DNA of 63,726 bases, filler included, from an uncultured Acidimicrobiia bacterium (GTDB lineage Bacteria > Actinomycetota > Acidimicrobiia > Spongiisociales > JAOTWH01): NCBI GenBank assembly GCA_964347285.1. It is 7 parts of 4 records of this genome, joined end to end, with 100 filler letters (N's around TTAATTAATTAA, not from the genome) between each part and the next. Parts side by side here need not be neighbours in the genome. Positions count along the whole stretch, not along the records: positions 1 to 20,930 come from CAYFYE010000001.1; 6 more parts are not named here. One strand, written 5' to 3'. Position 1 is the first letter of the stretch. The number at the start of each line of letters is the position of its first letter. The position numbers were made by a program, and so were the translations under genes. Shown piece after piece: positions 3,122-62,712 of the stretch. The notes under the pieces are model-generated. The model saw only the letters and a list, made by a program, of their open reading frames with translations. It was not told the DNA's origin and searched no databases.

Positions 3122-3606
3122 CGACCGCCACTCCTGTCGGCACCGGCCGGGGCGCTCCCGGCCAGGAACCGGCGGGCCACCTCGGAGAACTCACGAGCCA
3201 GGAAGCTGTAGACCTCACACATCTCGCTGAGCCGGGCCTGTGCGGCGGGCCGATCGGCGAACCGTTCGAGGGCCCTGCGGGCCAGGTGCTCTACGGCCTC
3301 GAGCGCCTCGAGGCGGCGCCACACCAGATTGACGATCGCTCCCTCGCCGACCGTGAAGTAGTCACGCTGCTCACCCGGCATCCGAATGCGGTCGGCCAGT
3401 CCCTGGCTCACCAGCAGGCGGGTGGCGCTGCTGATCGATCCGGCCGAGGCCCCCAGAGCATGCCCCAGGTCGGCCGCCGATATCGCCGGGGCCTCGGCGA
3501 TGAGTAAGTACCCCCACACCCGGCCGGCCATGCGGGAGACACCGGCCTTTTCGAACAGCTGGCCCATGTTCTCGGCGAAGCGCAACTCGTCGCTCACGTC
3601 GGCCAT
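3118..3606 (-). CDS. GbsR/MarR-family transcriptional regulator
   Basis: 'GVSRMAGRVWGYLLI...SAADLGHALGASAGSISSATRLL...RDYF' winged-helix pattern; 4-nt overlap with the ATPase gene. Confidence 0.85.
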   Translation of the reverse strand: MADVSDELRFAENMGQLFEKAGVSRMAGRVWGYLLIAEAPAISAADLGHALGASAGSISSATRLLVSQGLADRIRMPGEQRDYFTVGEGAIVNLVWRRLEALEAVEHLARRALERFADRPAAQARLSEMCEVYSFLAREFSEVARRFLAGSAPAGADRSGGR

Positions 3607-13079: not shown

Positions 13080-14081
13080 ATGGATTTCGGCGTCGTCCTC
13101 CAGACTGATCCCCCCGTGTCCCGGGTCCTCGAGCTGGCCGAACGGGCGGCCGGCAACGGCTTCGGCTACGGCTGGACGTTCGACTCACACGTGCTGTGGC
13201 AAGAGCCGTTTGTGATCTACAGCCGGATGCTGGCTGAGACCGAAGACATGATCGTGGGGCCGCTGGTCACCAACCCGGGGACCCGGGACTGGACGGTGCT
13301 GGCCTCGCTGTTCGCCACGCTGAACGACATGTACGGGGGGCGGACGATCTGCGGTATGGGCCGGGGCGACTCGGCGCTGCGCTACATCGGACGCAAGCCC
13401 ACCACTCTGGCGACGATGGAGGAAGCCATCGAGGTGGTCAAGGGCCTCGTGGCCGGTCGGGAGGTCGACTACCGCGGCTACCCGGTCCGGATCCCCTGGG
13501 TTGGAGATGGGTGGGATCTCCCCATGTATGTCGCCGGCTACGGTCCCAAGGCGCTCGACCTCATCGGGCGCAAGGCCGACGGCTTCGTTCTCCAGCTGGC
13601 CGACCCGCAGATCCTCGAGTGGACGCTGAGCTCGGTCAGAGAGAGTGCCGGAGCGGCCGGGCGCGACCCGGCCGAGGTCAAGGTCCTGGTGGCGGCACCG
13701 GCCTACGTGGGCGACAACCTCGAGGACCAGCGCGACCAGCTGCGCTGGTTCGGCGGGATGGTGGGCAATCACGTGGTCGACCTCGTCAATCGCTACGGGG
13801 AGGACGAGACCAAGGTGCCCAAGGCCCTCAGCGACTACATCAGGGCCCGCAAGGCCTACGACTACGCCCACCACGGCCGGGCCGGCAACCCGAGCACGAA
13901 CTTCGTGAGCGACGACATTGTCGACCGCTTCTGCGTGCTGGGACCGGCCGCCGATCACATCGCCAAGCTGTCGGAGCTCAGGGACATCGGCTGCGACCAG
14001 TTCGCCATCTACCTGATGCACGATGCCCAGGAGGAGACCCTCGACGCCTACGGCCGGGAGATCATTCCGGCGTTGGCCTAA
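13080..14081 (+). CDS. LLM-class putative F420-dependent oxidoreductase (TIGR03842-like)
   Basis: 'MDFGVVLQTDPP...WTFDSHVLWQEP...VTNPGTRDWTV...GRGDSA...WFGGMVGNHV'; abuts mmsA stop. Confidence 0.85.
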   Translation: MDFGVVLQTDPPVSRVLELAERAAGNGFGYGWTFDSHVLWQEPFVIYSRMLAETEDMIVGPLVTNPGTRDWTVLASLFATLNDMYGGRTICGMGRGDSALRYIGRKPTTLATMEEAIEVVKGLVAGREVDYRGYPVRIPWVGDGWDLPMYVAGYGPKALDLIGRKADGFVLQLADPQILEWTLSSVRESAGAAGRDPAEVKVLVAAPAYVGDNLEDQRDQLRWFGGMVGNHVVDLVNRYGEDETKVPKALSDYIRARKAYDYAHHGRAGNPSTNFVSDDIVDRFCVLGPAADHIAKLSELRDIGCDQFAIYLMHDAQEETLDAYGREIIPALA

Positions 14082-14749
14082 CCGCGCCAGAACTCACCGG
14101 TGAGGCCGACGGAGCCGAGTGCTGCCTGCACCTCGGCCCCGGTCTTGGGCCGCCACTTCACGCTCATGCGGTCGGCGTACCAGACCCGCCCCAGGTCGAA
14201 GGCTTGCCGGATCGGTACCAGCTCGCCGACGGGAAGATGTGTCTGCGCCGACCAGGAGGAGGCGTGCTCTTCCGACCGGAAGAGCAGAATCGTCGATCAG
14301 GTGAAGCCGATGTCGTCCCAGAACAGGGAGGGGGGCACCACGAACTGGACGAACCCGTCGTCGCCGTGCAAGACACCTTCTACCACCTCGAGCTGGAAGG
14401 GCCGTCCGCAGTCGGGACAGGCGGTGTGGATGGCGGCATCGACGCCCAGCATCGGAGGAATGGCGAGGGCATCCCACGCACAGTTGGCCCACCACGAGGT
14501 GTCTCGACCGATGACCCGGTAGGCGGTCGGTCGGGCCGAGAACGGGTGGGCCATCCATATCTCGGCGGTGGCGGGGAACAGGGCCAGGGCGTGCCGGTCC
14601 GCCAGCCGTCGGCGAGCGGCGGCGATCTCGTCCTCATCGGCGTCGAGGGCCTCGGCATCCTCGGCGATGGTCGGCGGGCGGCCCGTTTGCGCGAATTGGC
14701 GGTAGATCGAGGCCCGGAGCTGCCAGTCGAATGCGGTGCCCACGTTCAC
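14078..14749 (-). CDS. Organomercurial lyase (MerB)-like protein, predicted selenoprotein (in-frame TGA 14297-14299)
   Basis: 'MAHPFS..PT', 'WANCAWDAL', 'CPDC', 'FWDDIGFT-TGA-STILLFRSEEH...WYADR...GLTGEFWRG-TAG'; SECIS-like hairpin follows TGA; start may be 14743. Confidence 0.8.
14265..14286 (-). other. Bacterial SECIS-like hairpin
   Basis: UGCUCUUCC-GGUC-GGAAGAGCA, perfect 9-bp stem beginning at position +11 after the in-frame UGA. Confidence 0.75.
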
Positions 14750-14792
14750 CGCATCGTATCGAAGATCCCTCTCCGTCTGCCATGCTGAGCGG

Positions 14793-15686
14793 GTGACACC
14801 GTCCCGCATCGACGCGGCGCTGGATGCACTCGAAGGCCTGAGCGTCGGCGACGCGTTCGGCGAGCGGTTCTTCGCTCCGGCAATGGAACAGATGCTCGCC
14901 GGGCGCCGACTTCCGGATCCACCGTGGGCCTGGACCGACGACACCAACATGGCCTGTTCGGTCACCGCGGTCCTGCGCGTGGAGGGAGAAGTCGACCAGG
15001 ATGCCCTGGCTCTGAGTTTTGCCCGCCATTACGAGCCCGGACGCGGCTACGGAGCGGCGATGCATGGCGCCCTGGCCGAGATCGGGAAGGGTCGCCACTG
15101 GAGCGAGGTAGCCGGGTCGCTGTTCGGCGGCGAGGGCTCGTACGGCAATGGTGCCGCGATGCGGGTGGCCCCGGTAGGCGCCTTCTTCGCCGATGATCTC
15201 GAGGCGGCGACCGAACAGGCGAGGCGATCGGCAGCGGTGACCCACGCCCACCCCGAAGCGGCCGCCGGGGCGGTGGCAGTGGCGGTGGCCGCCGCCCTGG
15301 CCGTGGGTTCTCGAGGAGGCGACCGGCCGGGTCCTCCGGATTTCATCCGCGAGGTCCGCGACCACGTTCCCGATAGCGACGTGGCGGCCCGGCTGGGGAC
15401 GGCGGCATCGCTCCCCGGCACTACCTCGGTCGAGGAGGCGGTGCTGGTCCTGGGGAACGGATCGTACGTGTCGTGCCAGGACACCGTCCCTTTCGCCTTG
15501 TGGTGCGCGGCGTGGAATCTGGACGACTACCCGGCCGCCCTGTGGCGCACCGTGAGCGGCCTCGGTGACCGCGACACCACCTGCGCCATCGCCGGGGGCG
15601 TGGTGGGATCCCGGATGGGACGGGAAGGCCTGCCTCTCTTCTGGCGAGAGGCCCGGGAGCCGCTGCCGCAGTGGGCGACGATGTAG
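14793..15686 (+). CDS. ADP-ribosylglycohydrolase family protein
   Basis: 'GLSVGDAFG', 'WTDDT', 'GNGAAMRVAP', 'TH.HP', 'GDRDTT'. Confidence 0.9.
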   Translation: MTPSRIDAALDALEGLSVGDAFGERFFAPAMEQMLAGRRLPDPPWAWTDDTNMACSVTAVLRVEGEVDQDALALSFARHYEPGRGYGAAMHGALAEIGKGRHWSEVAGSLFGGEGSYGNGAAMRVAPVGAFFADDLEAATEQARRSAAVTHAHPEAAAGAVAVAVAAALAVGSRGGDRPGPPDFIREVRDHVPDSDVAARLGTAASLPGTTSVEEAVLVLGNGSYVSCQDTVPFALWCAAWNLDDYPAALWRTVSGLGDRDTTCAIAGGVVGSRMGREGLPLFWREAREPLPQWATM

Positions 15687-20930: not shown

Positions 20931-21030
20931 NNNNNNNNNNNNNNNNNNNNNNNNNNNNNNNNNNNNNNNNNNNNTTAATTAATTAANNNNNNNNNNNNNN
21001 NNNNNNNNNNNNNNNNNNNNNNNNNNNNNN
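20931..21030. other. Artificial contig linker
   Basis: N44-TTAATTAATTAA-N44 (stops in all six frames). Confidence 0.97.
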
Positions 21031-45184: not shown

Positions 45185-46103
45185 CCTGGCCGGCGGTGGC
45201 GTTGACGGCGTTGACCCAGTTCACCGCATGGGGATTGCCGGGGTTCTCCTTGACCCAGCCAACGTAGGCCTGGTCGAGTGTCGAGGCGTACAGGTGGCAG
45301 AAGCAGGCGTCCTTTCGCCCGCCAGGTATCTCCGGGTCGACCGTCGCCGGGTTGGGTACCGGCTCCCAGATCTTGGCCCGGTACACCGCGTAGCTACGGC
45401 CGGCGATGGCCTGGGCCTGCAGCACGGCCGCCGACCACGAGGACGGCACCTCGCCGAGGCCGTAGAGGTACTGCTCCAGGTCGATCTCGAGCGCAACGTG
45501 AAAGGTGTTGTCGGGGGCCGGGCGGATCCGGATGGCGGTGCCTCGGGCATAGGTGCGGTTGATGTTGGGCAGCTCGATCTTGACGTTGGGCTGGTCCTCC
45601 CAGGTGAAGGCCGCCCGGCACTCCCCGGGGTTGCCTACGGGGAGAAAGGCGGCCCCGTCGAAGCGAGAGAACTGGCACTGGTTGAGCCCGGTCACCTCGA
45701 ATCGCCACAGCTCGCCGGCCTGGGGCTGAGCCGACTGCTTGGGGCAAGGGCCCTCACCGTCGCCGGCCTGGCACAAGGTCACCGGTCCCCCGAGGGGCCG
45801 GAAGTCGACGACGGTCTGGTCCTGCTGGAGGCCGATCCACAGCGGGTTGGGAAACGAGGTGACGGCGGCGGCGTCCTGGACCGCCGTGCCGGTGTAGTAG
45901 TACCCGGTGATCTGGGCTGCCGAGTAGCCGGCGGCGTCGGCCAGGGCGCGGGCCCCATACTGGGTCATGCCGATTCCGTGACCCCATCCGGCACCGGTGA
46001 AGGCGACCTCTTCGTCTGCGTGGGCCGGGGCCGCCCACAGCACCAGGGCGGTGAGCAACGCCGCGGCGACCGACAGCGGGCGGATCAGGATCGTGGGGGG
46101 CAT
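45185..46103 (-). CDS. Secreted SpoIID/LytB-domain protein, truncated
   Basis: Signal peptide; 'GAGWGHGIGMTQYGA', 'LEQYLYGLGEVPSSW...AQAIAGRSYA', 'DQAY.G'. Confidence 0.88.
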
Positions 46104-46153
46104 GTGTGATTCGATCGGCTCTCGGTTGTCGGTAGTTGAACTGACTACGCCCG

Positions 46154-46184
46154 AAAACCCCGGGGAACTCTACTCGCCCCGGGT
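46154..46184 (-). terminator. Probable terminator after korB
   Basis: GC stem CCCGGGG/CCCCGGG followed by GTTTT on the minus strand. Confidence 0.4.
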
Positions 46185-46199
46185 CCGATCACCGGTTTG

Positions 46200-47216
46200 T
46201 CACTCGACCGTCCACGTTCCGGTAGAGGTGATCAGTTCGTGCAGGTCACCCGGGCCCTTGGTCGCCTGGGCCTCGACCAGCTGGCGAGCCACCATGTCTT
46301 CGTAGGCATCCCGTTCCACGCTCCGGAACACGCCGACCGGGGTGGGGCCGTGCGGACCGTGGGAGAGCCGGCTGAGGGCGAAGGCGGCGCTGGGGTCGAC
46401 CGCGTGGGCATCGTGGACGTGGATGGTGTCCAGGCCCACCTCGGCCACCTCGACGATGCGGGCCGTGCCGTCCTCGATGACGATGCCGTGCTCGCCTTCT
46501 TTGCCGAAGACGACCGGGCGGCCGTGCTCGAGATTGATGCGGTTGGCTTCCCGCTCGTCGCGGCCGGTGAGCTCGATGAATGCCTTGTCGTTGAAGACGT
46601 TGCAGTTCTGGTAGATCTCGATGAAGGCCGAGCCCCGGTGCTGGTAAGCCTGTTCCAGCATCTCGGTGGTGTGGTCGCGGTCCATGTCGATGGTGCGGGC
46701 CACGAAGGTGGCCTCGGCCCCGAGCGCCAGGCTGACCGGATTGAACGGGTAGTCGACGGTGCCGAACGGGCTCGACTTGGTGATCTTGCCCGCCTCGCTG
46801 GTCGGAGAGTACTGGCCTTTGGTGAGGCCGTAGATCTGGTTGTTGAACAGCAGCACCTTGATGTTCACATTGCGCCGCAGGGTGTGGATGATGTGGTTGC
46901 CGCCGATCGAGAGGGCATCGCCGTCCCCGGTGACCACCCAGACCGACAAGTCGGGATTGGCGGTGGCGATGCCGGTGGCGACGGCCGGGGCCCGGCCGTG
47001 GATGCCGTGCACTCCGTAGGTGGCCATGTAGTAGGGGAACCGGGATGCGCACCCGATCCCGGAGACGAACACGAACCGCTCCTTGTCGACGTCCAGGCCG
47101 GCCATGAAGTTCTGCACGGCGGCCAGGATCGTGTAGTCGCCGCAACCGGGGCACCAGCGGACTTCTTGGTCGGTCTGGAAATCCTTGCGCTCGTATCTGG
47201 TGGCGGCGTCGGTCAT
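46200..47216 (-). CDS. korB: 2-oxoacid:ferredoxin oxidoreductase beta subunit
   Basis: 'VRWCPGCGD', 'SGIGC', 'IHGRAP', 'GDGDALSIGGNH', 'YGLTKGQYSPT'. Confidence 0.94.
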   Translation of the reverse strand: MTDAATRYERKDFQTDQEVRWCPGCGDYTILAAVQNFMAGLDVDKERFVFVSGIGCASRFPYYMATYGVHGIHGRAPAVATGIATANPDLSVWVVTGDGDALSIGGNHIIHTLRRNVNIKVLLFNNQIYGLTKGQYSPTSEAGKITKSSPFGTVDYPFNPVSLALGAEATFVARTIDMDRDHTTEMLEQAYQHRGSAFIEIYQNCNVFNDKAFIELTGRDEREANRINLEHGRPVVFGKEGEHGIVIEDGTARIVEVAEVGLDTIHVHDAHAVDPSAAFALSRLSHGPHGPTPVGVFRSVERDAYEDMVARQLVEAQATKGPGDLHELITSTGTWTVE

Positions 47217-49075
47217 CGCTGGGTCATCTCCATGATCTTGTCCTCGATCTCGGCCGCCTTGAACGGCACGCCCTGCACCTTCCCGTAGCCGACGGCCGGG
47301 ACCAGGAACTGGTCGCGCACCATGCGGACGAGCTGGCCTCGGTTCAACTCCGGCACCAGGATCGTCCGGTGCCGGTCGAGGATCTCACCCAGGTTGGCCG
47401 GGAAGGGGTTGAGGTGGCGCAGGTGAACACGGGCCACCTCGGCACCGTGGCGGCGGGCGTTGCGGACCCCGGCCAGCACCGCCGCGTTGGTCGATCCCCA
47501 GGAGAGGAGAAGGAGGTCGGCCGTCTCGTCCCCCTCGACGACTGCCGCCGGGATGTCGTTGGCGATGCGCCTGACCTTGTCTTCCCGCAGCCGGGTCATC
47601 AACTCGTGGTTGACCGGGTCGTAGGACACGTTGCCGGTGAGCTCTTCCTTCTCGAGGCCGCCCACCCGGTGTTCCAGGCCGGGGGTGCCGGGGACCGCCC
47701 AGGGTCGGGCCAGTGTCTCGGGATCGCGCAGATAAGGCAGGAATTGGCCGTCGCTGTTGGGCTCGGTCGCGAAGGGGATGCTGATGTCGGCCAGCTCGTC
47801 GACCTCGGGCAGCAGCCACGGCTCCGAGCTGTTGGCGATGTAGCCGTCGGACAACAGGAGGACCGGGGTCATGTACTTGAGGGCTATGCGGGCCGCCTCG
47901 ATAGCGGTGTCGAAGGCATCCGACGGCGAGGCGATGGCGATCACAGGAACCGGAGCCTCGCCGTGACGTCCATGCATCGCGAACAGGAGATCGGACTGCT
48001 CGGTCTTGGTGGGCAGGCCGGTCGAAGGGCCGCCCCGCTGGATATCGATCACGATCAGGGGAAGTTCCAACATCATGGCCAAGCTGACCGTTTCGCTCTT
48101 GAGGGCCAGCCCGGGTCCACTGGTTCCGGTGGCGCCCAGGCTTCCCGCGAACGCGGCCCCCAGTGCCGCCCCCGCCGCCGAGATCTCGTCCTCGGCCTGG
48201 AAGGTGCGCACCCCGAAGTTCTTGTAGCGGGCCAGCTCCTCGAGGACGCTGGAGGCCGGCGTGATCGGGTAGGAGCCGTAGAAGAGGGGAAGCTTGGCGG
48301 CCTGGGCGGCGGCGATCAATCCCCAGGCCAGAGCCTGGTTGCCGGTCACGTTGGCATACGTTCCCGGCTCCAGCTTGGCCGGTTTCACCTCGATCGTGTG
48401 CTGGAACGCCTCGGTGGTGATGCCGTAGTTGTATCCGGCCTTGAGGGCGGCGATGTTGGCCGCCGCTACATCGGGAGTCCGGGAGAATTGATGGTCGACC
48501 CAATCGATCGTGTAGTCGAGGGAACGCCCGAATACCCACGAGAGCAGACCGAGTGCGAAGAAGTTCTTCGACCGCAGCACGCCCCTCCCAGTGAGGCCGG
48601 TGCCGGCAACGGCCTCCTTGGTCAGCTCCTCCATCGGCGCTTCGAGCAGCGTGTAGTTGTCGAGGCTGCCGTCGGTGAGAGGGTTGTCCTCGTAGCCGGC
48701 CTTGTGGAGGTTCCGCTCCTGGAAGGCGTCGGCGTTGGCGATGATGATCCCGCCCTTGCGGACGTCGCCGAGGTTGGCCTTGAGGGCGGCCGGGTTCATG
48801 ACCACCAGCACGTCGGGCTCGTCCCCGGGAGTCAAGATGTCCCAGTCGGCGATGTGGACCTGGAACGATGAGACGCCGGGAAGCGTGCCGGCCGGGGCGC
48901 GAATCTCGGCGGGGAAATTGGGAAGCGTCGAGATGTCGTTACCGAACAGTGCCGAAATCGCGGTGAAGCGGTTGCCGACTAGTTGCATTCCGTCCCCGGA
49001 GTCGCCGGCGAAGCGAATCACCACGTGGTCGCGGCTGGTCACCTCCGGCGCGGGGGCCTTCGATTGAGTGGTCAC
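47213..49075 (-). CDS. korA: 2-oxoacid:ferredoxin oxidoreductase alpha subunit (gamma-alpha fused)
   Basis: 'RFAGDSGDGMQL', 'SYPITPAS', 'QAEDEI', 'TSGPG', 'QRGGPSTGLPTKTEQSD'. Confidence 0.94.
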   Translation of the reverse strand: MTTQSKAPAPEVTSRDHVVIRFAGDSGDGMQLVGNRFTAISALFGNDISTLPNFPAEIRAPAGTLPGVSSFQVHIADWDILTPGDEPDVLVVMNPAALKANLGDVRKGGIIIANADAFQERNLHKAGYEDNPLTDGSLDNYTLLEAPMEELTKEAVAGTGLTGRGVLRSKNFFALGLLSWVFGRSLDYTIDWVDHQFSRTPDVAAANIAALKAGYNYGITTEAFQHTIEVKPAKLEPGTYANVTGNQALAWGLIAAAQAAKLPLFYGSYPITPASSVLEELARYKNFGVRTFQAEDEISAAGAALGAAFAGSLGATGTSGPGLALKSETVSLAMMLELPLIVIDIQRGGPSTGLPTKTEQSDLLFAMHGRHGEAPVPVIAIASPSDAFDTAIEAARIALKYMTPVLLLSDGYIANSSEPWLLPEVDELADISIPFATEPNSDGQFLPYLRDPETLARPWAVPGTPGLEHRVGGLEKEELTGNVSYDPVNHELMTRLREDKVRRIANDIPAAVVEGDETADLLLLSWGSTNAAVLAGVRNARRHGAEVARVHLRHLNPFPANLGEILDRHRTILVPELNRGQLVRMVRDQFLVPAVGYGKVQGVPFKAAEIEDKIMEMTQR

Positions 49076-49177
49076 GGTGGCTCGATCCTTCGCGTCTGGA
49101 ACGTCGAAAAACGGGGTAATCAGCGGGCCCGACCATCATACCGTCGGCCTGGTCCGGCCCAACCAATCGTGATGGTC

Positions 49178-50578
49178 TCACGTCTCGGGAGGCTCAGGTG
49201 GGCGACCGACCGCCACCAGACCGGCGGCCTCGAGGGCCAGCCCCACCGCCAGGAGGCGAGCTTCGCCCCAGCGGGGTCCGATCAGTTGGACCGGGGGAGC
49301 CGGTCGGCCGGCGACATTGAGAGGGAGCACCAGGGCCGGGACGCCCATGTGGTTGACCAGCGCCGAGAACTGGGGCAAGACGCTCCGGTAGTGCCGCTCC
49401 ACTCCGTCCACCGTCATCTCGGGCTTTCCGATGACCTTGTGCAGCGCCGGCACCGCCGGCGTGGCCAGAAGGTCGAAGCCGGCGAACAGCCGATCGGCGG
49501 CTTGGGCGAGGGCGGTCCGCCATTCCAGCCCGGCCTGGGCGTCCTCGGCCGTGGCCGTGGCTCCTTGCGCCAGCCGTTCCCGCACCTCGGGCCCGTAGCG
49601 CTCGGGATTCTCCTCGTACCAGGCCCGGTGGACGGAGAACGCCTCGGGAGCGGTGGCCTCCCAAACCCGGCCGGGAGCCTGCAGCTGGGGCGCGTGCGGC
49701 TCTTCGACAAGCGCACCGTGATCGGCGAGGGCGTCGAGAAAGGAGCTGAGGGCACCGGCGATGATGGGATCGGTGGGCTGGTCGACCCACGGGCGGGGCA
49801 CGCCCACCTTCAAGCCGGTGAGGGGGGCCGGTCCCGCGGGGTACTCCACCTCTCGATTCACCGACCACGGGTCGTGCGGATCGAAGCCGGCGATGGCGGC
49901 ATACACCAGGGCGGCGTCGGCAACGGAGCGGGCCAGCGGCCCGACGGTGTCGACCGACGAAACGAGGGGGAAGACACCCCGCAACGGCACCCGGCCGTGG
50001 GTGACCTTCAGGCCGACGATGCCGCACAGCGCCGCCGGCACCCGCACCGACCCCCCGGTGTCGGTCCCCAGCGACACCGGAGCCATGCGGGCGGCGACGG
50101 ATGCCGCCGATCCTCCCGACGACCCGCCCGGAGATGTGTTCGGGTCCCAGGGGTTGCGCACCGGGCCCCACCAGTCGTTCTCGCTGGAGAATCCATAGGC
50201 GAACTCGTGGAGGCCGGCCCGACCGATCGAAACGGCCCCGGCCGACTCGAGACGCTCGATCACCGGGGCGTCCTCCTCCGGGACCTTTCGATAGAAGGAA
50301 GAGCCGCAGGTGGTGGGCACACCGGCCTCGTCGATGAGATCCTTCACGGCTACCGGGACGCCGGCCAGGGGACCGAGTCTCTCACCCCGGCTCCGGCGCT
50401 CGTCGAGTCGGGCGGCCCGGGCGACGGACCGCTCGGCGTGCACGAGGGTGAAGGTGTTGAGGAGGGGCTGCAGGCGCTCTATGCGTTCCAGGTAGGCACC
50501 GACCACCTCCCGGACCGAGACCTCTCCGGAGGAGACGTCTGCGGCGAGTCGGCCCGCCGACCGATCGATGAGGTCCAC
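49178..50578 (-). CDS. Amidase signature family enzyme
   Basis: 'GVPVAVKD', 'PGGSSGGSA', 'LGTDTGGSVRVPA'. Confidence 0.9.
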   Translation of the reverse strand: MDLIDRSAGRLAADVSSGEVSVREVVGAYLERIERLQPLLNTFTLVHAERSVARAARLDERRSRGERLGPLAGVPVAVKDLIDEAGVPTTCGSSFYRKVPEEDAPVIERLESAGAVSIGRAGLHEFAYGFSSENDWWGPVRNPWDPNTSPGGSSGGSAASVAARMAPVSLGTDTGGSVRVPAALCGIVGLKVTHGRVPLRGVFPLVSSVDTVGPLARSVADAALVYAAIAGFDPHDPWSVNREVEYPAGPAPLTGLKVGVPRPWVDQPTDPIIAGALSSFLDALADHGALVEEPHAPQLQAPGRVWEATAPEAFSVHRAWYEENPERYGPEVRERLAQGATATAEDAQAGLEWRTALAQAADRLFAGFDLLATPAVPALHKVIGKPEMTVDGVERHYRSVLPQFSALVNHMGVPALVLPLNVAGRPAPPVQLIGPRWGEARLLAVGLALEAAGLVAVGRPPEPPET

Positions 50579-50582
50579 CCGA

Positions 50583-51767
50583 TCAGCCGGTGGGGGTGGC
50601 CGTCCAGGTGAGCGGCCCGTCCTGCGGGAAGAACGACACCCAGGGCCGGCCGGGAGGCACCGCCATCGGTGCGCCTTCCTCGTCGCGCAGCACGAAAGGC
50701 TCTTCGATCACGTCGCGGCTCCAGGTGCCTTCCTGGACCTTGCCCTCGGCGAACACATAGGCGGTCCCGTTCCCCACGGTCTCCATGGCCGGTACGGCGC
50801 TGCCGGCACCGGTCGGCGTTGCGGTGTACAGCGTTCCGGTGAGCACGACGAGGATGTCGGTGCTGATCTGCTCCTCGTTTCCCTGCCGATCGATCACGTT
50901 GTGGGGCAGCTCGTTGGTGTAGCGCACGTACTTCTGGCCGTCCCAGATCCACAGCACCCGGTTGGCAACGTCCCAACCGACGTTGACCTCGACGGCCGGC
51001 TCGGTGCCGCCGTAGGGGCCGATCTCGAAGAACACGCCGGGCGGGTCGTCGGGATAGCCGCGCTGGTCGGCGACCTCACGGAGCGCCATGGTGTCGCCGT
51101 ACAGGTTGTGGGGGGCGAAGCGGCTGTCGATGCGGAATGTGCCCGGCCCTTCGCCGATGAGCTTGATATCGGAGCCGACGATCAGCTGCTCGATCCAGGG
51201 CTGCGCTCCAGAGATGATCATGACGGGCTCGAAAGGCCGGATCAGAGTGGGGTCGGTGGGCCGCCCGCTGCGGATGGGGCCGAGATAGTCGGTGTCGTTG
51301 TCGTGAAAGACGGCGATGAAGCGACTGAACCCGCCCTCCACCAGCAGTTCGTAGACCCAGTCGGCCTCGTCGATGCCGGATTGCGGCTGGGCGTTGGGGT
51401 GGTTGTCGATCTTCACGGCCAGGACGCGACGATCCAGTTTGGCCGGATCCTCGGCTGCCAGGCCGTTGAGCGGCGAGACGGGTCCGGTCGCCACCGTCGT
51501 CGTGGTCGTCGAGGACGTCGTCGTGGTCGTGGTCGGCGCAGCGGCGGTCGTCGTCGTGGTGGTGGTCGTGGTCGCGGTCGAGCCTCCTCCGGCAACGAGG
51601 ACGATGATGACGGCCGCCAGGGTCACCCCGGCGGCAGCACCGCCCCCGTAGAGGAGCTGGCGACCGCGTTCGAGGCCGCCGTACCAGTCCCAGAGATCTC
51701 GGATGCGCTCGGGGAGGGACCGGAAGAAATCGGCGACGGCCCGGAAGAAGTCGGCGATGCGGCTCAC
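50583..51767 (-). CDS. DUF3048 membrane-anchored protein
   Basis: TM helix, Thr-rich linker, 'LAVKIDNHPNAQPQSGI..AD.VYE..VEGG.SRF', 'GPIRS.RPTD', 'APHNLY'. Confidence 0.88.
   Translation of the reverse strand: MSRIADFFRAVADFFRSLPERIRDLWDWYGGLERGRQLLYGGGAAAGVTLAAVIIVLVAGGGSTATTTTTTTTTAAAPTTTTTTSSTTTTTVATGPVSPLNGLAAEDPAKLDRRVLAVKIDNHPNAQPQSGIDEADWVYELLVEGGFSRFIAVFHDNDTDYLGPIRSGRPTDPTLIRPFEPVMIISGAQPWIEQLIVGSDIKLIGEGPGTFRIDSRFAPHNLYGDTMALREVADQRGYPDDPPGVFFEIGPYGGTEPAVEVNVGWDVANRVLWIWDGQKYVRYTNELPHNVIDRQGNEEQISTDILVVLTGTLYTATPTGAGSAVPAMETVGNGTAYVFAEGKVQEGTWSRDVIEEPFVLRDEEGAPMAVPPGRPWVSFFPQDGPLTWTATPTG
51492..51577. repeat. Low-complexity Thr-codon repeat (poly-Thr linker)
   Basis: Runs of GTC/GTG/GGT encoding TATTTTTTTTTAAAPTTTTTTSSTTTTTV on the minus strand. 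Confidence 0.7.
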
Positions 51768-51823
51768 GATGCGGGAGTGTAAGGGGACGGGCGACCACTT
51801 CCGTCGCTTTCAGGAGGCTCGAC

Positions 51824-54148
51824 TCAGGGCGGCGGCACCAGGCGCAGCTCGTCGTGGGTCGCCGCCTCCACCTCGTCATCGGCCCACGGGATGGGGAGCC
51901 CGTCTCCCTTTTCCCACAGGCCGAGCTGGTCGGCGTAGTGGGGCGAGTAGGGGTTGCCGGATTGGCCTCCGGGGAGCACAAAGCGGCACCGCTCCCAGTC
52001 ACCCACATCGATCGTCATGCGCAGCGAGGCGATTGCTACCGTCGTCGGGCCGGCCGGCTGGAGGGGATCCGGACCGGCCTGGCTGACGGTGTTGGCGTCT
52101 CCCCCCCAGCGCAGCGGGCCGAGGTTGAAGATCTGGTCGAGCGGGGGACGCTCGGCGAGGGGATGGCGCAGGACCAAGGGCCGGACCCGCCCCCAGGTGC
52201 GTTGAGCTCGGTCTCCAAAGGAGCCCAGAGAGCGAGTCGCCTGGGCGAGGGCGCCGGCGATCTCCTCGTCCCATCCCCGGGCGAACCATCCGGTGGGCCG
52301 TTCCCTGAGCAGCGTCACCAGCAGGCCGGCCCGGCGGAAGGCAAAGAGGCTGAAGGGGACGATGGAGGTGAAGCCCCGCCCCAGGGCCCATTCGGCGGAG
52401 CCGGGCGCTTTGGCGAGGACGATCCGTCTGTCCAGTTCGGCCAGGAGCAGTTCGAACAGGGCCGCCTCCTCGGAGTCGGCGCCGACCACGCCGTCCCATT
52501 CCTCCAGGAGCCGGTGGACTTCATCCAGATCGGCCCGGCCGGCTATGGCGGGAAGGACGTGAGACCGCAACTCTCGCCACACCAGGGACACCTGGTCGAG
52601 CTGTAGATCCATTGTCCCGTACAGGTCCCAGTCGTCACGCTGGGACAGAACTTGGACGATGCGTCCCACCCGATAGCCGTCGATCCAGTCGACTCCCAGG
52701 TAGGGCTCCCGACCGGCCGCCGGCCGATTGTTGGCCGTCGCCACGAAGCCGGATTCCGGATCGAGGGCGTAGGGCATCATCCCGGGGTCGACCGGCTCCG
52801 ACTCCCAGCCCACCCCTGCCGACCAGGCCGGCAATGGGATGGTGCCGCCCCCGGTGCGCCGGACCGGTGCCTCTCCGGCGAGCAGGTAGCCGATGTGGCC
52901 GTCGGCGTCTGCATACGACATGCCCAGCGTGGCGGCCGGCCACTGAGCCATGGCGGTCCGGAACTCCTCGAAGTTGCGGACCCGGTGGAGGGCGAGCAGG
53001 CCTTTGATCGGGCGAGGCTCCAGCCAGGTCGCTTGGAGCGATATGGCGCCCAGCTCGCCGGCGAGGGCCGGCCCGATGATCGGTCCCCGGTCGGTGACGA
53101 GGACGTCTTCGATGGCGGTGTCGCCGTTGCGGACTCCGATGCTTTCGGTGTAGACCCGGCACGGCACGAATCCTTCCGGTCGGCGCACCGAACGCCCGTC
53201 GGAGCCGATCTCCTCGATGTAGAGGTCGGTGTTGTCGACGAGGCCGGCGGTCACTCCCCAGGCGGCGTGGCCATTGTGGCCGGCCGGAACGCCGGGGGTG
53301 CCCACGAAGGAAGCTCCGGCCAGGGCCCACCGGGGAGTCACGAGGTGGCACAGATACCAGTGCGGGGGCAGCAGCGGGGCCAGGTGGGGGTCGTTGGCCA
53401 GAAGGGGTCGGCCGGTGGCGGTCCGGCCGGGCGCTACCGCCCACGTATTCGATCCGCCTTCGAGACCGGCCCAGGAACGCAGGCCCTCGACGTCGGCCGC
53501 CAGGCGGTCGAGGGCGGGCCCGGCGGCATCGCCGGGAGGGGTCGACAGCGGATGCCACTCCGGATAGGCGGGATCGAGAGCATGGAGGGCCTCCTCTCCA
53601 TCGGTGGAGAGCACCTTGAGGCGGGCCAGCTCGCTGTCCCAGTTGGCGGCGAGCAGGAAGCCCTCCAGGGCCAGGATGGCCAGGACATCGGCCGGCTGGA
53701 ACGGCGTCGGGGCCGCTCGCAGCAGCACGAACTCGTGGGGGCGGGCCGGGAGGCCGATCTCCCATCCGGCATTCACGCCGGCGGCGTAGGCGGCGAGGGC
53801 GGCTGCCGTCTCCTCGTCGAGGAGGGGGAGCCGAGCGTCGGCGCTGCGCCAGAAGCCGACTCGGCGCGCCAATCGATCGACGGCGAGCGCTTCGGGGCCC
53901 ACCAGCTCCGCAAGCGTTCCTCGCGAGAGGCGGAGGAGCAGCTCGAGCTGAAAGGTCCGGTCCTGGCCGTGGCAGAAGCCGATTCCGTAGAACGCATCGG
54001 TGTCGGATTGGGCGCCGATGTGGGGAACGCCAAACCGGTCACGTCTGATCGTCACCGGCCCTTCGATGCCGGGGACTTCGATTTGCCCGCTGGTGACCGG
54101 GAGGCGGCGGCCCAGGAGCAGACGGGCGGCGGTTTTGGCAAAGCTCAT
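51824..54148 (-). CDS. Penicillin acylase family (Ntn-hydrolase)
   Basis: 'RDRFGVPHI', 'HGQDR.FQL', nucleophile 'GSNTWAV', 'LANDPHL', 'PGGQSG.P.SPHYADQ'. Confidence 0.92.
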   Translation of the reverse strand: MSFAKTAARLLLGRRLPVTSGQIEVPGIEGPVTIRRDRFGVPHIGAQSDTDAFYGIGFCHGQDRTFQLELLLRLSRGTLAELVGPEALAVDRLARRVGFWRSADARLPLLDEETAAALAAYAAGVNAGWEIGLPARPHEFVLLRAAPTPFQPADVLAILALEGFLLAANWDSELARLKVLSTDGEEALHALDPAYPEWHPLSTPPGDAAGPALDRLAADVEGLRSWAGLEGGSNTWAVAPGRTATGRPLLANDPHLAPLLPPHWYLCHLVTPRWALAGASFVGTPGVPAGHNGHAAWGVTAGLVDNTDLYIEEIGSDGRSVRRPEGFVPCRVYTESIGVRNGDTAIEDVLVTDRGPIIGPALAGELGAISLQATWLEPRPIKGLLALHRVRNFEEFRTAMAQWPAATLGMSYADADGHIGYLLAGEAPVRRTGGGTIPLPAWSAGVGWESEPVDPGMMPYALDPESGFVATANNRPAAGREPYLGVDWIDGYRVGRIVQVLSQRDDWDLYGTMDLQLDQVSLVWRELRSHVLPAIAGRADLDEVHRLLEEWDGVVGADSEEAALFELLLAELDRRIVLAKAPGSAEWALGRGFTSIVPFSLFAFRRAGLLVTLLRERPTGWFARGWDEEIAGALAQATRSLGSFGDRAQRTWGRVRPLVLRHPLAERPPLDQIFNLGPLRWGGDANTVSQAGPDPLQPAGPTTVAIASLRMTIDVGDWERCRFVLPGGQSGNPYSPHYADQLGLWEKGDGLPIPWADDEVEAATHDELRLVPPP

Positions 54149-54223
54149 GCCGCGAAGAGGCTAGGGACAAGTCAGGCGAGAGAAGTCGGGAGGCGGCGCC
54201 GTGGCGTGTACCGGCGGTGCGGC

Positions 54224-55156
54224 TCAACCGTCGGCGACGATCTTCGCCGTCAGCTCGGCCTGAATGACCGCCGCCTCGTCGTTGGGCACCTGACAGGTGC
54301 CGGCCTTCACGTGCCCCCCTCCGTCGTAGGCCAGCATCAGCTCCCCGACGTTGGTCCGTGAGCTCCGATTGAATATCGATTTGCCGACGGCGAAGACCGT
54401 GTTCTGGCGCTGCTTGCCCCAGATGACGTGCATCGAGATGTTCTGTTCCGGATGCAGCGCGTAGATCATGAAGCGGTTGCCGGGCCAGATGGTCTCTTCG
54501 CTACGAAGGTCGAGGACCACCAGGTTGTGATGGACCCGGGCACATCGCCGGATCTGATCCTTGAAGCGCCGTTCGTGCGCGAAGTAGAGGTCGACCCGTT
54601 CCTCGACGTCGGGCAGCCTGATGATCTCCTCGATCGTGTGATGCCGGCAATACTCGATGAGCTCCATCATCAGCTGGTAATTGCTGATGCGGAAGTCGTG
54701 GAAGCGCCCCAAGCCGGTCCGGGAATCCATTATGAAAGAAAGGAGCTCCCACCCCTTGGGCTCGAGAACGTCTTCCATCGTGTAGAGGGCCGAGTCGGCC
54801 TTGTCGACGGCGGCCATCATGGCGTTCCATTCGGCGGGGAAGCGCTCCTTGCCTCCGAAGTGCTCGTAGACCACCCGTGCCGCAGAGGGAGCGTTGGCGT
54901 TGATGATGTGGTTCGGTGGAGTGATGGGGTTGCGTAGTTTTTCACTGAAGTGGTGGTCGAACGCCAGGTGCACCCCCTCCTGATAGGGGAGGTTGGTCAA
55001 TATGTCCCGAGGGGTGACTTCGATCTTTCCGTCCTGGACGTCTTTGGGGTGTACGAACAGGATCTCGTCGATCAGATCCAGTTCCCTGAGGAGGACGGCC
55101 GACACCAACCCGTCCATGTCGCTGCGGGTGACCAGCCGGTGCTTTTCGGCCGTCAT
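54224..55156 (-). CDS. DHH-family phosphoesterase (exopolyphosphatase/oligoribonuclease-like)
   Basis: 'RLVTRSDMDG', 'FDHH', 'MDSRTGLGRF', 'GGGH..AGTCQ'. Confidence 0.85.
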   Translation of the reverse strand: MTAEKHRLVTRSDMDGLVSAVLLRELDLIDEILFVHPKDVQDGKIEVTPRDILTNLPYQEGVHLAFDHHFSEKLRNPITPPNHIINANAPSAARVVYEHFGGKERFPAEWNAMMAAVDKADSALYTMEDVLEPKGWELLSFIMDSRTGLGRFHDFRISNYQLMMELIEYCRHHTIEEIIRLPDVEERVDLYFAHERRFKDQIRRCARVHHNLVVLDLRSEETIWPGNRFMIYALHPEQNISMHVIWGKQRQNTVFAVGKSIFNRSSRTNVGELMLAYDGGGHVKAGTCQVPNDEAAVIQAELTAKIVADG

Positions 55157-55215
55157 GGGACTCCTTTGGCAGCTCCTCAGGTGCTTTTCGGCCGATCTGG
55201 CGAAAGCCTTGAGCC

Positions 55216-55734
55216 TCAGCCGAGGGCCGGGGCCTCGGCGGGTCGTCCCAGCCGGTCCGGCGGCCAATAGCGCAACACGGCCCGCCACTCGATGTCGGCG
55301 GCGCGAATCGGTCCCAGGGATCGACCGTCGTCGGCCGAGAGGGCTCGTCGGTCGCCCAGCACGAACACCTCCCCGGGCTCGAGGTCCCACGATCCGTCGC
55401 CGAGGGTGGGCCCGTCCGCCCACGGCTCGGCCAGAGGGCGGCCGTCGACGTGGACCTGGCCCCCCGAGATCTCGATCCGCTCGCCGGGGAGGCCGACCAC
55501 GCGTTTTGTGAGGTAGAAACGGTGCCGAGCGGGGTGGGGGAAGACGACGATCTGGCCCCGTAGGGGGGAGCCGGACACCCGGCGGGTCAACAGGTAGTCG
55601 CCCGGCAGCAATGCCGGAGCCATGCTCTCCTCGGCCACCTCGAATCGGCCGAACTCGCGGCGGAGCAGCGCACCGGCGATCGCCGCCAGCGCGGCTCCGA
55701 TAGCCGCCCCCGCTACTCGCCTCCCGTCCGGCAC
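55216..55734 (-). CDS. sodX: S26 peptidase, probable NiSOD maturation protease
   Basis: 'SMAPAL.PGD', 'LTKRV', 'LGD...S.DGR..GP'; divergent from sodN. Confidence 0.75.
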   Translation of the reverse strand: MPDGRRVAGAAIGAALAAIAGALLRREFGRFEVAEESMAPALLPGDYLLTRRVSGSPLRGQIVVFPHPARHRFYLTKRVVGLPGERIEISGGQVHVDGRPLAEPWADGPTLGDGSWDLEPGEVFVLGDRRALSADDGRSLGPIRAADIEWRAVLRYWPPDRLGRPAEAPALG

Positions 55735-55815
55735 CTGCCCCCCGGACCCGGTCGGAGCGGAGTGTATCGTGACCGGGCCGTCGTAACGCAGAAGCTATCG
55801 ACTGGGAGGTGACCC

Positions 55816-56247
55816 ATGGGGCTCTGGAAGCCCGCCCGTATTGCCCATGCTCACTGCCACGTTCCCTGTGGCATCTACGACCCGGTGTTCGCCCAGAATG
55901 CCGCCGAGACCGTCGTCAAGATGGTCGAGCAGCTCAACGATCTCGACGTGCCCGGTCCGGACGCATCCAAAGAGGAGCAGCTGAGCTACGGGCAGGCGGT
56001 CGCTCGCCGCGTGGCCAACAAGGAGGAGCACGCCAAGAAGTGCAAGTACGAGCTCCTGGATGTGCTGTGGAGCCAGTACTTCAAGCCGGCCCATGTCGAG
56101 CGCTGGCCCGATCTCCACGACAAGTTCTTCTCCGCCGGTCACCTATGCACCCAGAACATGCAGGAGATCTCGATGGAGAAGGCCCAGGCTCTGCTCGATC
56201 TGACCACAGAGATCGCCGAGATCTTCCACGAATCCAAGAAAGGCTGA
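55816..56247 (+). CDS. sodN: Nickel superoxide dismutase precursor
   Basis: Leader then hook A|HCHVPCGIYDP; 'KEEHA', 'LWSQYFKP.H'. Confidence 0.92.
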   Translation: MGLWKPARIAHAHCHVPCGIYDPVFAQNAAETVVKMVEQLNDLDVPGPDASKEEQLSYGQAVARRVANKEEHAKKCKYELLDVLWSQYFKPAHVERWPDLHDKFFSAGHLCTQNMQEISMEKAQALLDLTTEIAEIFHESKKG

Positions 56248-56271
56248 GGTCGGGGCCGGGCCGGCCGCCAA

Positions 56272-57846
56272 TCACGATGGGGGTGGGCCGCCGGCTGCTC
56301 CAATCGTCTTCAACCGCTCGATCCCCGCAACAGACAGAAACACGGTGGCGGCGAAGACCACTGCGCCAACGATCACGGCCGCCACGCTCCCCGGTGCCGT
56401 CTCGGCGGCGGTGACCTGGAGCACGGCCTCGGAGGCGACCCAGGCCACCAGGCCGGCCAGGGTGGCCACCGGCAGGGCTCGCCGGGCGGTGATCAGCACG
56501 GGACTCAGGTATCCCCAGCCGATCTCGCGATGCCACAGAAAGGCGAGGACGGCGGTGTAGCCGGCCAGTGCCAGCGTGGACGCCAAAGCCAGGCCGGTGA
56601 CGTCGAAGGCGGTGAGCAACCCCCAGTAGAGGGGAACGGCGAGGGCGGTGGCCGCCGTCCCCACGATGACCGGTACCCACATCCGGCGTCGGGCATAGAA
56701 CGCCCGGGCGTACAGCTGCTGGGCACCCCAGAGCGGGATCCCCAGCGCGAAGAAGAGGAGCGTTGCGGCGGTGGCGCCGGTATCGCCTGCGTCCCAGTCA
56801 CCGCGCTCGTAGAGGAGCCGCACCACCGGGAGGGCCAGGGCGGCCAGGGCGGCGGCCGCTCCCAGGCTGAGGGCGATCACCGGGCGCAGTGCCTTGGTCA
56901 GGGTTGTCGCCAAGGCGTGGATTCTTCCTTCGGCCGCCAGCCGGGCCAGGTACGGATAGGCCGCCACGCCGGCGGCCTGGGCGATGATCCCCACCGGCAC
57001 CAACATCGTGCGCCGGCCGAACTGGAGCCAGGAAATCGATCCGTCGGCATCCGCCAGCGACCCGAAGCTGCGCCCCAACAGCTCGTCGAGGATGACGAGT
57101 GATTGCCCGATCATGAGCGGGATCGCCAGCGCCAGATACTCCAGGAGCGCCGGATCGACGAGGCGGTCGGTCCGGCGGAATCGGAGTCCGGCATTCCGGG
57201 CCCCCAGCCATTGAACGAGGAAGTTGCCGACTACGGCGCCGCCGAGTACGCCCCAGGCGAATCCCTCCGGGCTCTGCTCACCGTCGATGCGGAGGAAGAC
57301 GCCGCCCAGGATGATCCCGAGGTTGTAGATGATCGGTGCCAGCGTCGGCACCAGGAAGCGCTCTTTGGCGTATTGAACCGCCATGAACAGCGAGCCGACC
57401 ACGAAGAAGACCTGGGCGGGCAGCACGATACGGGTGAGCCGGGTGGCCCGCTCCACCTGCTCGGGCGTGAAGCCGGGCACCACCCGCTCGATCACCGGGC
57501 CGGCCGCCGCCATGGCGATCACCACCAGGACCGTCATCGCCGCCCCAACCGGTACGGCGATGGCAGTGAACGCCTTCCAGCCGCCTTCCTCATCGCCGGC
57601 GGCGAGGTGGCGCGACAGGATCGGGATGAAGGTGATCGCCATGTACCCGCCGGCCAGCAGGTAATTGAGGAAATCCGGGATGAGGAAGGCGACCTGGTAC
57701 TCGTCGGTGAAGGCGTCGGCACCGAGCACCGAGGCGAACACCATGTCGCGGACCAGGCCCAGGACCCGTGACAGCGCAACTCCGGCGCCGACGATCAGGG
57801 CGGCGCGGCCGATGCGGCTGCCGATGGTCCGCGTCGACGTGCTCAC
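56272..57846 (-). CDS. murJ: Lipid II flippase
   Basis: 'LSRVLGLVRD', 'AFLIPD', 'FIPI', 'LYERG', 'RAFYAR'; many TM helices. Confidence 0.92.
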   Translation of the reverse strand: MSTSTRTIGSRIGRAALIVGAGVALSRVLGLVRDMVFASVLGADAFTDEYQVAFLIPDFLNYLLAGGYMAITFIPILSRHLAAGDEEGGWKAFTAIAVPVGAAMTVLVVIAMAAAGPVIERVVPGFTPEQVERATRLTRIVLPAQVFFVVGSLFMAVQYAKERFLVPTLAPIIYNLGIILGGVFLRIDGEQSPEGFAWGVLGGAVVGNFLVQWLGARNAGLRFRRTDRLVDPALLEYLALAIPLMIGQSLVILDELLGRSFGSLADADGSISWLQFGRRTMLVPVGIIAQAAGVAAYPYLARLAAEGRIHALATTLTKALRPVIALSLGAAAALAALALPVVRLLYERGDWDAGDTGATAATLLFFALGIPLWGAQQLYARAFYARRRMWVPVIVGTAATALAVPLYWGLLTAFDVTGLALASTLALAGYTAVLAFLWHREIGWGYLSPVLITARRALPVATLAGLVAWVASEAVLQVTAAETAPGSVAAVIVGAVVFAATVFLSVAGIERLKTIGAAGGPPPS

Positions 57847-57886
57847 GGGGGCAAGTTACCCGGCCGGTTCCGGCCCTCCCGGTAGA

Positions 57887-61344: not shown

Positions 61345-61404
61345 GAGGTCACGCTAGCGGTCCGGTCACTTGGTGGGGCCGGCGGCTCCCCTTAGGTTGT
61401 CCCC

Positions 61405-62100: not shown

Positions 62101-62344
62101 CCGGTCCTTCGCCGGTGCGACGCGAACTCTGACCCCACGCGGCTTCCCAGCGGGAGGGTTCACCGTTGCTGCTTCTTCGGGCACGAGCGCATGATGTGCC
62201 GATCCAGCGCATCATTCATGCGCGGGCGATATGGCGCAGAGCGGGTGCTCTGCGCCGGGCATGGCTTTGGCAATGCGCGGCGGGCCGGCACTGTTCATCC
62301 GGAAAGCGTATGTTGGGCCATAGGCATCCGACACAGGAGGCGCC

Positions 62345-62677: not shown

Positions 62678-62712
62678 TCGGCCTCGGTTGACGTTCGATA
62701 CGCGACAGGAAG

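Follow-up and report, generated by a model that had tools for sequence, protein, structure and literature searches.

A MerB-like gene with a predicted selenocysteine codon in an uncultured Acidimicrobiia bacterium

The window analyzed here is a 63,726-nucleotide (nt) stretch of DNA from an uncultured Acidimicrobiia bacterium (GenBank assembly GCA_964347285.1), and its minus strand very probably carries a real and intact selenoprotein gene between positions 14078 and 14749. We consider it likely that this is one 223-codon gene for a protein with the fold of the carbon-mercury lyase MerB, in which an in-frame TGA (14297-14299) is predicted to encode selenocysteine (Sec) where MerB carries its second catalytic Cys, and that it operates by the recoding and lyase mechanism proposed below. 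Carbon-metal(loid) lyase chemistry of the predicted Sec protein is favored by a modest degree on the basis of its conserved residues, and methylmercury or another organomercurial is put forward only tentatively as the physiological substrate. A hidden selenoprotein at this locus had been proposed in a sequence-only reading of the same DNA; the proposal is supported by the conservation of the TGA, a conserved hairpin downstream of it, the Sec machinery of the genome, and the predicted fold of the read-through product. The features of the gene are as follows.

14078..14749, minus strand: complete coding sequence (CDS) of the predicted MerB-like selenoprotein, 223 codons plus TAG (open frame; start alignment with homologs; AlphaFold2 mean predicted local distance difference test [pLDDT] score of 96.8)
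14297..14299, minus strand: in-frame TGA, predicted codon of Sec151 (aligned to Cys of MerB2 5c17 and MerB 3f2g; TGA in 80/80 loci)
14265..14286, minus strand: predicted bacterial Sec insertion sequence (SECIS) hairpin with a 9-bp stem (fold; 81-sequence alignment; comparison with fdhF)
14267-14284, minus strand: conserved 7-bp core of the hairpin, with the apical loop GGUC at 14274-14277, inside the L-F-R-S-E codons
14471..14482, minus strand: Cys90-Ala-Trp-Asp93 codons within the motif WWANCAWD (alignment to MerB/MerB2; Cys90 and Asp93 in 76/76 members)
14585..14749, minus strand: N-terminal helical domain, approximately residues 1-55, winged-helix-like (AlphaFold2 helices 3-22, 28-34, and 39-51; weak Foldseek matches)
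14177..14542, minus strand: MerB catalytic domain PF03243, residues 70-191, including the predicted Sec codon (Pfam, 101.9 bits)
14081..14176, minus strand: conserved C-terminal extension past the Pfam MerB model, residues 192-223 (invariant columns G215 and W221; pLDDT 91-98; helix 204-213)

In the open reading frame (ORF) list of the window, the ORF at 14297..14965 terminates at the TGA, the context of which on the minus strand is ATC GGC TTC ACC TGA TCG ACG ATT CTG CTC TTC CGG TCG GAA GAG. Beyond it, the same frame continues for 72 further sense codons (STILLFRSEEHASSW...GLTGEFWRG) to a TAG at 14078-14080, which shares 4 nt with the stop of a convergent luciferase-like oxidoreductase gene (13080-14081, plus strand). 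Translation with TGA read as Sec (U) yields one uninterrupted frame from upstream of position 14749, in which only one codon is recoded (U168 of the translated sequence P0001). The GC content at third codon positions (GC3) is 0.86 before the TGA and 0.85 after it; downstream of the TGA, the two alternative frames have values of 0.67 and 0.51. The GTG at 14749 is the likely start, because homologs carry 141-155 codons upstream of the TGA; it places 150 codons before the TGA and gives a product of 223 residues. An alternative GTG at 14743 would give 221 residues. The longer ORF reaching back to 14965 runs into a divergent ADP-ribosylglycohydrolase gene, and nothing like it is seen among the homologs. 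The sequence-only reading had described an ORF track that stops at the TGA, an open frame of 72 codons up to a TAG overlapping the convergent stop, and a product of about 223 residues, and all of this agrees with the ORF list, the read-through translation, and the start at 14749.

Relatives of the gene were sought in contigs representing one genome per species, and the 80 best of the 135 stretches found to code for one were taken. Every one of these 80 loci has TGA at the column in question; the search pattern could not have favored this codon, because the column had been back-translated with Cys. According to record titles, the loci belong to Gemmatimonadota, Acidobacteriota, Chloroflexota, Planctomycetota, Actinomycetota, and Myxococcota, and the frame remains open for 65-86 codons past the TGA in 79 of them. 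The titles name, among others, an Oscillochloris isolate and MAGs (metagenome-assembled genomes) labeled Gemmatimonas, Archangium, and Thermoflexus. Of 151 sampled genomes from the same class as the window's organism, 17 carry a strong ortholog, taken as one with E ≤ 1e-48; 16 of these orthologs have one TGA and one has none. As a side observation, the Chloroflexota locus L055 has a second in-frame TGA (3478-3480; W-*-Q), 15 codons further on from the Sec codon, at a column that reads W-C in L054, the locus most closely related to it, and in many others, and Ser in the window protein. This could be either a second Sec codon or the mark of a broken copy.

Protein databases present the family largely in shortened form. 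A search returned 586 proteins at E ≤ 0.001; among the 120 listed, 118 end exactly one residue before the TGA column and lack the tail, another is shorter by one more residue, and only P0012 (231 residues, 42% identical) runs through, with a Cys aligned at the TGA column. The nearest MerB-like homolog among the matches listed is P0002 (63% identity). Searching 1.84 billion representatives with a profile produced 4440 matches at E ≤ 0.001, and 148 sequences were examined (147 of the 150 listed, together with P0012). The Sec column corresponds to a stop in 70, Cys in 69, Trp in 2, and another residue or a gap in 7. The TGA or Cys that the sequence-only reading had asked for at this column of the homologs is thus present in both forms, as TGA in the loci and as Cys in nearly half of the representatives. 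In a FastTree phylogeny of 145 full-length sequences, the Sec and Cys forms interleave, with approximately nine changes, at least two of which are forced by well-supported branches. The window protein, which sits in a polytomy, is nearest to an Acidimicrobiia Sec clade. Judged from this tree, the predicted Sec residue and Cys have been switched more than once in the family. Separately, three proteins of 308-320 residues (P0022, P0057, and P0077) have RNase H-type domains (PF13456 and PF00075) fused ahead of the MerB-like part, and they also terminate at the Sec column.

The hairpin at 14265-14286 is predicted to be a bacterial SECIS element. We aligned the 48 nt from the TGA onward for 81 sequences, 78 of which are distinct. 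The hairpin starts 15 nt past the TGA, with columns 16-22 facing columns 27-33 across the loop GGTC (columns 23-26), in which G23, G24, and C26 are invariant in the 81 sequences. The inner four pairs form in 78/78 distinct sequences. Compensatory changes are found at pair 19:30 (U-A to C-G in 11 sequences) and at pair 21:28 (C-G to U-A in 12), and some of them swap Glu for Lys yet keep the pair. None of 500 shuffles matched the covariation score or had as many doubly changed cells, and the score was above those of all six slid controls. Codon choice within the hairpin is also rigid: the Arg codon is CGG in 81/81 sequences and the next codon is TCG in 80/81, although both amino acids have six codons and the genomes vary widely in composition. 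Many metagenome contigs of other organisms, from two studies, align (≥85%) with the window only over 14263-14320, which contains the TGA and the hairpin, and diverge on both sides. Summed depth peaks in this segment at 63.6 in run X1 and 286 in run X3, versus 8.3 and 5.2 in nearby bins. This pile-up fits a nucleotide-level constraint on exactly the segment with the TGA and the hairpin.

The best comparison for the hairpin is fdhF of Escherichia coli, the SECIS element of which carries a bulged U. In fdhF (NC_000913.3), as here, the hairpin lies within the CDS directly downstream of the UGA (codon 140), and its apical loop GGUC occupies nt 22-25 counted from the U of the UGA, compared with nt 23-26 in the MerB-like gene. 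The stem sequences of the two hairpins are unlike each other. Several observations count against the SECIS prediction. The percentage of paired cells was equaled by 14 of the 500 shuffles; the hairpin overlaps the conserved peptide LFRSE, so part of the conservation is at the protein level; and, folded as a single sequence, the hairpin region has an unexceptional energy (z = -1.61, with 11 of 200 shuffles folding as well). An Rfam scan of 13900-15000 at E ≤ 10 gave no match; Rfam is not known to have a general model for bacterial SECIS elements.

The read-through product is MerB-like by domain, predicted structure, and structural similarity, as had been proposed from the sequence. The Pfam MerB domain (PF03243) matches it with 101.9 bits (cut-off, 27) over profile positions 1-125 of 126. 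When the two halves were searched, the piece before the TGA matched positions 1-74, and the piece after it matched positions 87-125 by itself (E = 1.4e-4). The AlphaFold2 model of the full 223-residue chain, built on 76 read-through homologs, has a mean pLDDT of 96.8 and a predicted template modeling score of 0.92, with no low-confidence segment, including in the 72 residues after the TGA. Foldseek found 11 Protein Data Bank chains at E ≤ 0.001, all of them MerB or MerB2 (E-values, 2.7e-11 to 6.6e-08; template modeling scores, 0.51-0.70; approximately 200 columns with ~21% identity), and the full-length matches also take in the N-terminal domain. By itself, this domain has weak local matches (50-65 columns, E ~0.4, probability up to 0.99) to the DNA-binding domains of LexA, MntR, and GntR. 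Among the 76 family members (2850 pairs), the mean pairwise identity is 45% after the Sec position and 41% before it.

The residues of the presumed active site are aligned in the same way. In the HMMER alignment, the TGA column falls on a Cys of MerB2 (5c17; G-T-C-K) and of MerB (3f2g, a C160S mutant; F-C-S-H), and the motif WWANCAWD aligns with a Cys and an Asp of both proteins. We take the MerB residues to be Cys159 for the TGA column and Cys96/Asp99 for the motif, in which case the equivalents in the 223-residue numbering are Cys90, Asp93, and Sec151. All 76 aligned members have both Cys90 and Asp93, and Cys90 is thus never replaced by Sec in this clade. The numbering is consistent with PMC8261052 and with a preprint by Haft and Gwadz (bioRxiv 10.1101/2022.07.06.499078). 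These alignments bear out two further proposals of the sequence-only reading, namely, that NCAWD supplies the first Cys/Asp pair and that the TGA stands where the second Cys is expected. The third position of the strict MerB triad Cys96/Asp99/Cys159 is occupied here by the predicted Sec. This is a chemically similar swap, which counts against membership in MerB in the strict sense and not against MerB-like chemistry.

The genome of the window's organism (2.63 Mb, 187 contigs, 90.5% complete) contains the machinery for Sec insertion, the search for which had been named as a test in the sequence-only reading. It has a tRNA-Sec (75.3 bits, anticodon TCA), adjoining selA and selB genes, and selD, all located on contigs other than that of the MerB-like gene. 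SelA is present in 15 of the 16 class-level carriers of the TGA form and in 5/5 carriers checked from other phyla. Two points reduce the weight of this co-occurrence: no SelA was seen in one carrier genome that is 98% complete (G033), and 101 of the 151 class genomes have SelA anyway, so that within the class the association is consistent with Sec use but weak. TGA is the commonest stop in the window, ending 19 of 29 long ORFs with high GC3. A reading of TGC or TGT at 14297-14299 had been named as one of the observations that would speak against Sec; the contigs (as opposed to raw reads) of three runs from two studies list no difference at these positions, and a contig of the second study, ~88% identical, spans the TGA. 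One of the runs (X1), a possible source of this DNA, is not independent, and the own-organism contig of another (X2) does not cover the TGA. No RNA run was listed among those with this DNA. The selD gene itself (G000:C9:24865-25794) has one in-frame TGA within its TIGR00476 match and probably encodes a Sec-containing selenophosphate synthetase.

The MerB-like gene stands outside any recognizable mer context. Its neighbors in the window, by Pfam, are the luciferase-like oxidoreductase, the ADP-ribosylglycohydrolase, an aldehyde dehydrogenase, and UvrC, and the genome holds a single MerB-domain gene, whereas its best MerA match stays below the curated cut-off (277 versus 454 bits). The absence of merA, merR, and merT nearby, as noted from the sequence alone, agrees with these results. 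Across 81 loci, recurrence of a neighbor is confined to a single Gemmatimonadales subgroup and to no more than 10 loci; the top recurring neighbor clusters were rejected, as they consisted of the gene itself and opposite-strand ORFs overlapping it. MerA passes the cut-off in 14 of the 151 class genomes. Among the 16 that carry the TGA form, G018 is the only one to have it, ~170 kb away from the MerB-like gene, and it passes in none of five carriers from other phyla. The weaker, TGA-free MerB matches of four class genomes (G020, G040, G088, and G089) lie a few kilobases from a canonical MerA on the same contig. The clade of the window gene is set apart from classical merB because of this difference in genomic context, stand-alone in one case and MerA-adjacent in the other.

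We propose that the hairpin with the GGUC loop, 15 nt past the UGA, would recruit SelB carrying Sec-tRNA(Sec), so that Sec would be inserted at the UGA in place of termination and translation would go on for 72 codons to the TAG at 14078-14080. Asp in MerB is the proton donor to the leaving carbon. By homology with MerB, the Cys90-Sec151 pair would bind an organometal, Asp93 would protonate the leaving carbon, and the metal would be released to small cellular thiols or another acceptor, MerA being absent. The product is likely to be MerB-like in its chemistry, because the catalytic set is kept as Cys90/Asp93/Sec151. A role in a classical mer resistance operon is not expected for a stand-alone gene whose carriers are mostly devoid of MerA. 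Compared with Cys, Sec has a lower pKa and binds soft metals more strongly, and Hg-Se binding is expected to be very tight. Sec could therefore raise reactivity at low substrate levels, yet hamper the release of Hg(II), and it is because of this harder release that we rate a mercury substrate no higher than tentative.

Some results weigh against the lyase function, and against mercury in particular. The column of MerB Cys117 holds Cys in just 53 of the 76 family members. The scores of the curated MerB models fall far below their cut-offs (NF009710, 59.4 versus 193 bits; NF033555, 47.6 versus 200 bits). No mer context was found at the locus (merA was searched for genome-wide, and merR and merT were not). 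Where MerA is missing, no route is apparent for releasing a tightly bound Hg-Se product, and the substrate may for this reason be something other than mercury.

There is a sizeable chance, although one short of even, that the protein is a MerB-fold selenoprotein other than a carbon-mercury lyase. Its Cys-Sec pair might serve in the binding, sensing, or transfer of soft metals or metalloids, in the cleavage of a different carbon-metal(loid) bond, or in thiol/selenol redox chemistry. Such a role would suit a stand-alone gene without conserved neighbors, found in a genome with no MerA over the cut-off, as in 15/16 of the class carriers and 5/5 of those from other phyla. It would also suit the distance from the curated MerB models, the conserved C-terminal extension that lies outside the Pfam MerB model, and the weak resemblance of the N-terminal domain to winged-helix DNA-binding domains. 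In addition, Haft and Gwadz argue that Sec at the metal site of SaoL, a selenocysteine-assisted organometallic lyase, makes it plausible that the substrate is not mercury, and they point out that the corresponding site of MerB takes other metals as well. Set against these points, the full catalytic set is kept (Cys in 76/76, Asp in 76/76, and Sec as the third member), a pure binding protein would not need the Asp, and the structural matches at E ≤ 0.001 are all MerB enzymes.

That the TGA is a true stop, with the gene being a pseudogene or encoding a truncated MerB-like protein of ~150 residues followed by a residual frame, is highly improbable. UGA termination competes with Sec insertion in all known systems. 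Some truncated product is therefore likely if selenium is scarce, and the short form is also what gene callers and public databases give. A mere stop, however, would not be expected at the same column in 80/80 loci over six phyla with the downstream frame open in 79/80, nor would a residual frame be as conserved as the part before it, with a coding GC3 and a pLDDT above 90. The truncated product would, moreover, lack one third of the MerB domain and a metal ligand. Still less probable is membership of the gene in the published SaoL family. Both have MerB kinship and Sec at the same catalytic position, and the SaoL model (NF040728) matches all 76 clade members weakly (best E = 6.8e-16, estimated ~59 bits), but the window protein reaches just 32.9 of the 140 bits required, T-U and never C-U is found in the clade (75 of 76 members having T-U), and no SAO neighborhood was seen among the neighbors assessed by Pfam and by recurrence. 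Finally, the possibility that TGC or TGT was misread or misassembled as TGA, or that TGA codes for an ordinary amino acid under a reassigned genetic code, can practically be dismissed: the assembly is fragmented, and the two representatives with Trp at the column were possibly called under another genetic code, but the same codon recurs in 80 independent genomes, the contigs of the three runs list no difference, and TGA serves as the usual stop both in the window and at the ends of most of the homologous genes.

Further observations concern the surroundings of the gene and the MerA-like sequences of the sampled genomes. The ADP-ribosylglycohydrolase ORF has a listed GTG start at 14736 that overlaps the likely MerB-like start at 14749 by 14 nt; its true start is probably further downstream, because its Pfam match begins only at residue 31. 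The closest named relatives of the neighboring UvrC (71-79% identity) are almost all from Acidimicrobiia MAGs, in line with a placement of the organism in Acidimicrobiia (Actinomycetota). P0002 and the UvrC homolog P0274 (79%) are each reported from a European Nucleotide Archive contig of 4441 bases; if the two lie on one contig, the adjacency of the MerB-like and UvrC genes is kept in a near relative. In G018, a match to a MerA-like pyridine-nucleotide disulfide oxidoreductase (G018:C16:200235-201584; 375 bits, below the cut-off) lies directly downstream of the canonical MerA and has one in-frame TGA, and it may represent another selenoprotein. A weak MerB-profile match in G063 (G063:C1:1408064-1408735), ~3 kb from a canonical MerA, has two in-frame TGAs and may be either a MerB-like form with two Sec codons or two frames joined. 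The window includes 572 N in runs of 44, often paired 12 nt apart (e.g., 20931-20974 and 20987-21030). Positions 45185-63726 map to contig G000:C48 and the MerB-like gene maps to G000:C1, showing that the window joins at least two contigs.

In public protein collections, this family exists almost only as fragments of ~147 residues, some of them under names such as "organomercurial lyase," "hypothetical protein," and "MocR family regulator." Those sourced from NCBI and named "organomercurial lyase" are truncated at 147-163 residues, and no model of NCBIfam release 20.0 reaches its cut-off for the family. The corrected gene model of 223 residues, with the signature WWANCAWD ... T-U ... LFRSE and the GGUC-loop hairpin, represents a direct gain for annotation. 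According to section 4.4 of a marine merB survey (PMC12874090), sequences without Cys96, Asp99, Cys117, or Cys159 were discarded, and a filter of this kind would drop the truncated calls of the MerB-like family. If carbon-mercury cleavage is true, the family would offer a candidate demethylation route in organisms without mer operons, as well as a natural Sec/Cys pair for probing the effect of selenium on MerB chemistry. More speculatively, and with the odds clearly against it, this could be a large, database-hidden selenoenzyme family for the mer-operon-independent breakdown of methylmercury or other organometals. Its hosts would be Gemmatimonadota, Acidobacteriota, Chloroflexota, and Acidimicrobiia that abound in soils, sediments, and waters; merB surveys would have missed the family through truncated calls lacking the Cys159 column, and it would tie selenium availability to mercury cycling.

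Among known systems, the nearest comparison is SaoL (NF040728). In the preprint by Haft and Gwadz, SaoL is defined by a CU dipeptide, with the Sec structurally aligned to MerB Cys159 and the Cys96/Asp99 equivalents kept, and it marks a nine-gene SAO locus of strictly anaerobic bacteria, mostly Firmicutes. SaoL is also the sole MerB-like selenoprotein family (motif CU, NF040728) in the tables of two reviews, as far as these could be consulted (PMC9312934 and PMC13188914). No other MerB-like selenoprotein was found in the literature searched, which did not extend to subscription journals or to the supplements of both reviews and the preprint. The remark in the sequence-only reading that Sec-containing MerB-like proteins had already been noted elsewhere therefore holds for SaoL, and the window gene belongs to a different clade. 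SaoL and this clade are both related to MerB, have Sec at the Cys159 position, and keep the Cys96 and Asp99 equivalents. They differ in the residue before the Sec, which is Cys in SaoL and Thr (75/76) or Ala (1/76), never Cys, in the clade. The conserved C-terminal extension is a feature of the clade, unlike SaoL. SaoL is located in its nine-gene locus in anaerobes, whereas the clade gene stands alone in six other phyla. By record titles, the carriers are MAGs of mostly aerobic phyla, although individual carriers may be anaerobic. The nine-gene SAO neighborhood was not found among the neighbors, which were assessed by Pfam and by recurrence over the 81 loci and not by scanning individual Sao models. 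The separation from SaoL is based on hidden Markov model score, motif, and context.

The comparison with MerB itself is similar in kind. MerB of plasmid R831b (EC 4.99.1.2; Protein Data Bank entries 1S6L, 3F0O, 3F2F, and 3F2G) and MerB2 (5C17) have the same fold and Pfam domain as the clade protein, with Cys and Asp at the same motif positions and a chalcogen ligand at the third position in all of them. The window protein differs from MerB in overall sequence (~21% identity), and the clade has Sec for Cys159 and Ser, Ala, or Arg for Cys160. Classical merB is part of a mer operon, while the clade gene is not beside merA, merR, or merT, and most of its carriers are without MerA. By these sequence comparisons, the window gene represents a widespread MerB-like clade, of which we found no description in print and which is distinct from both SaoL and the MerB proteins of mer operons.

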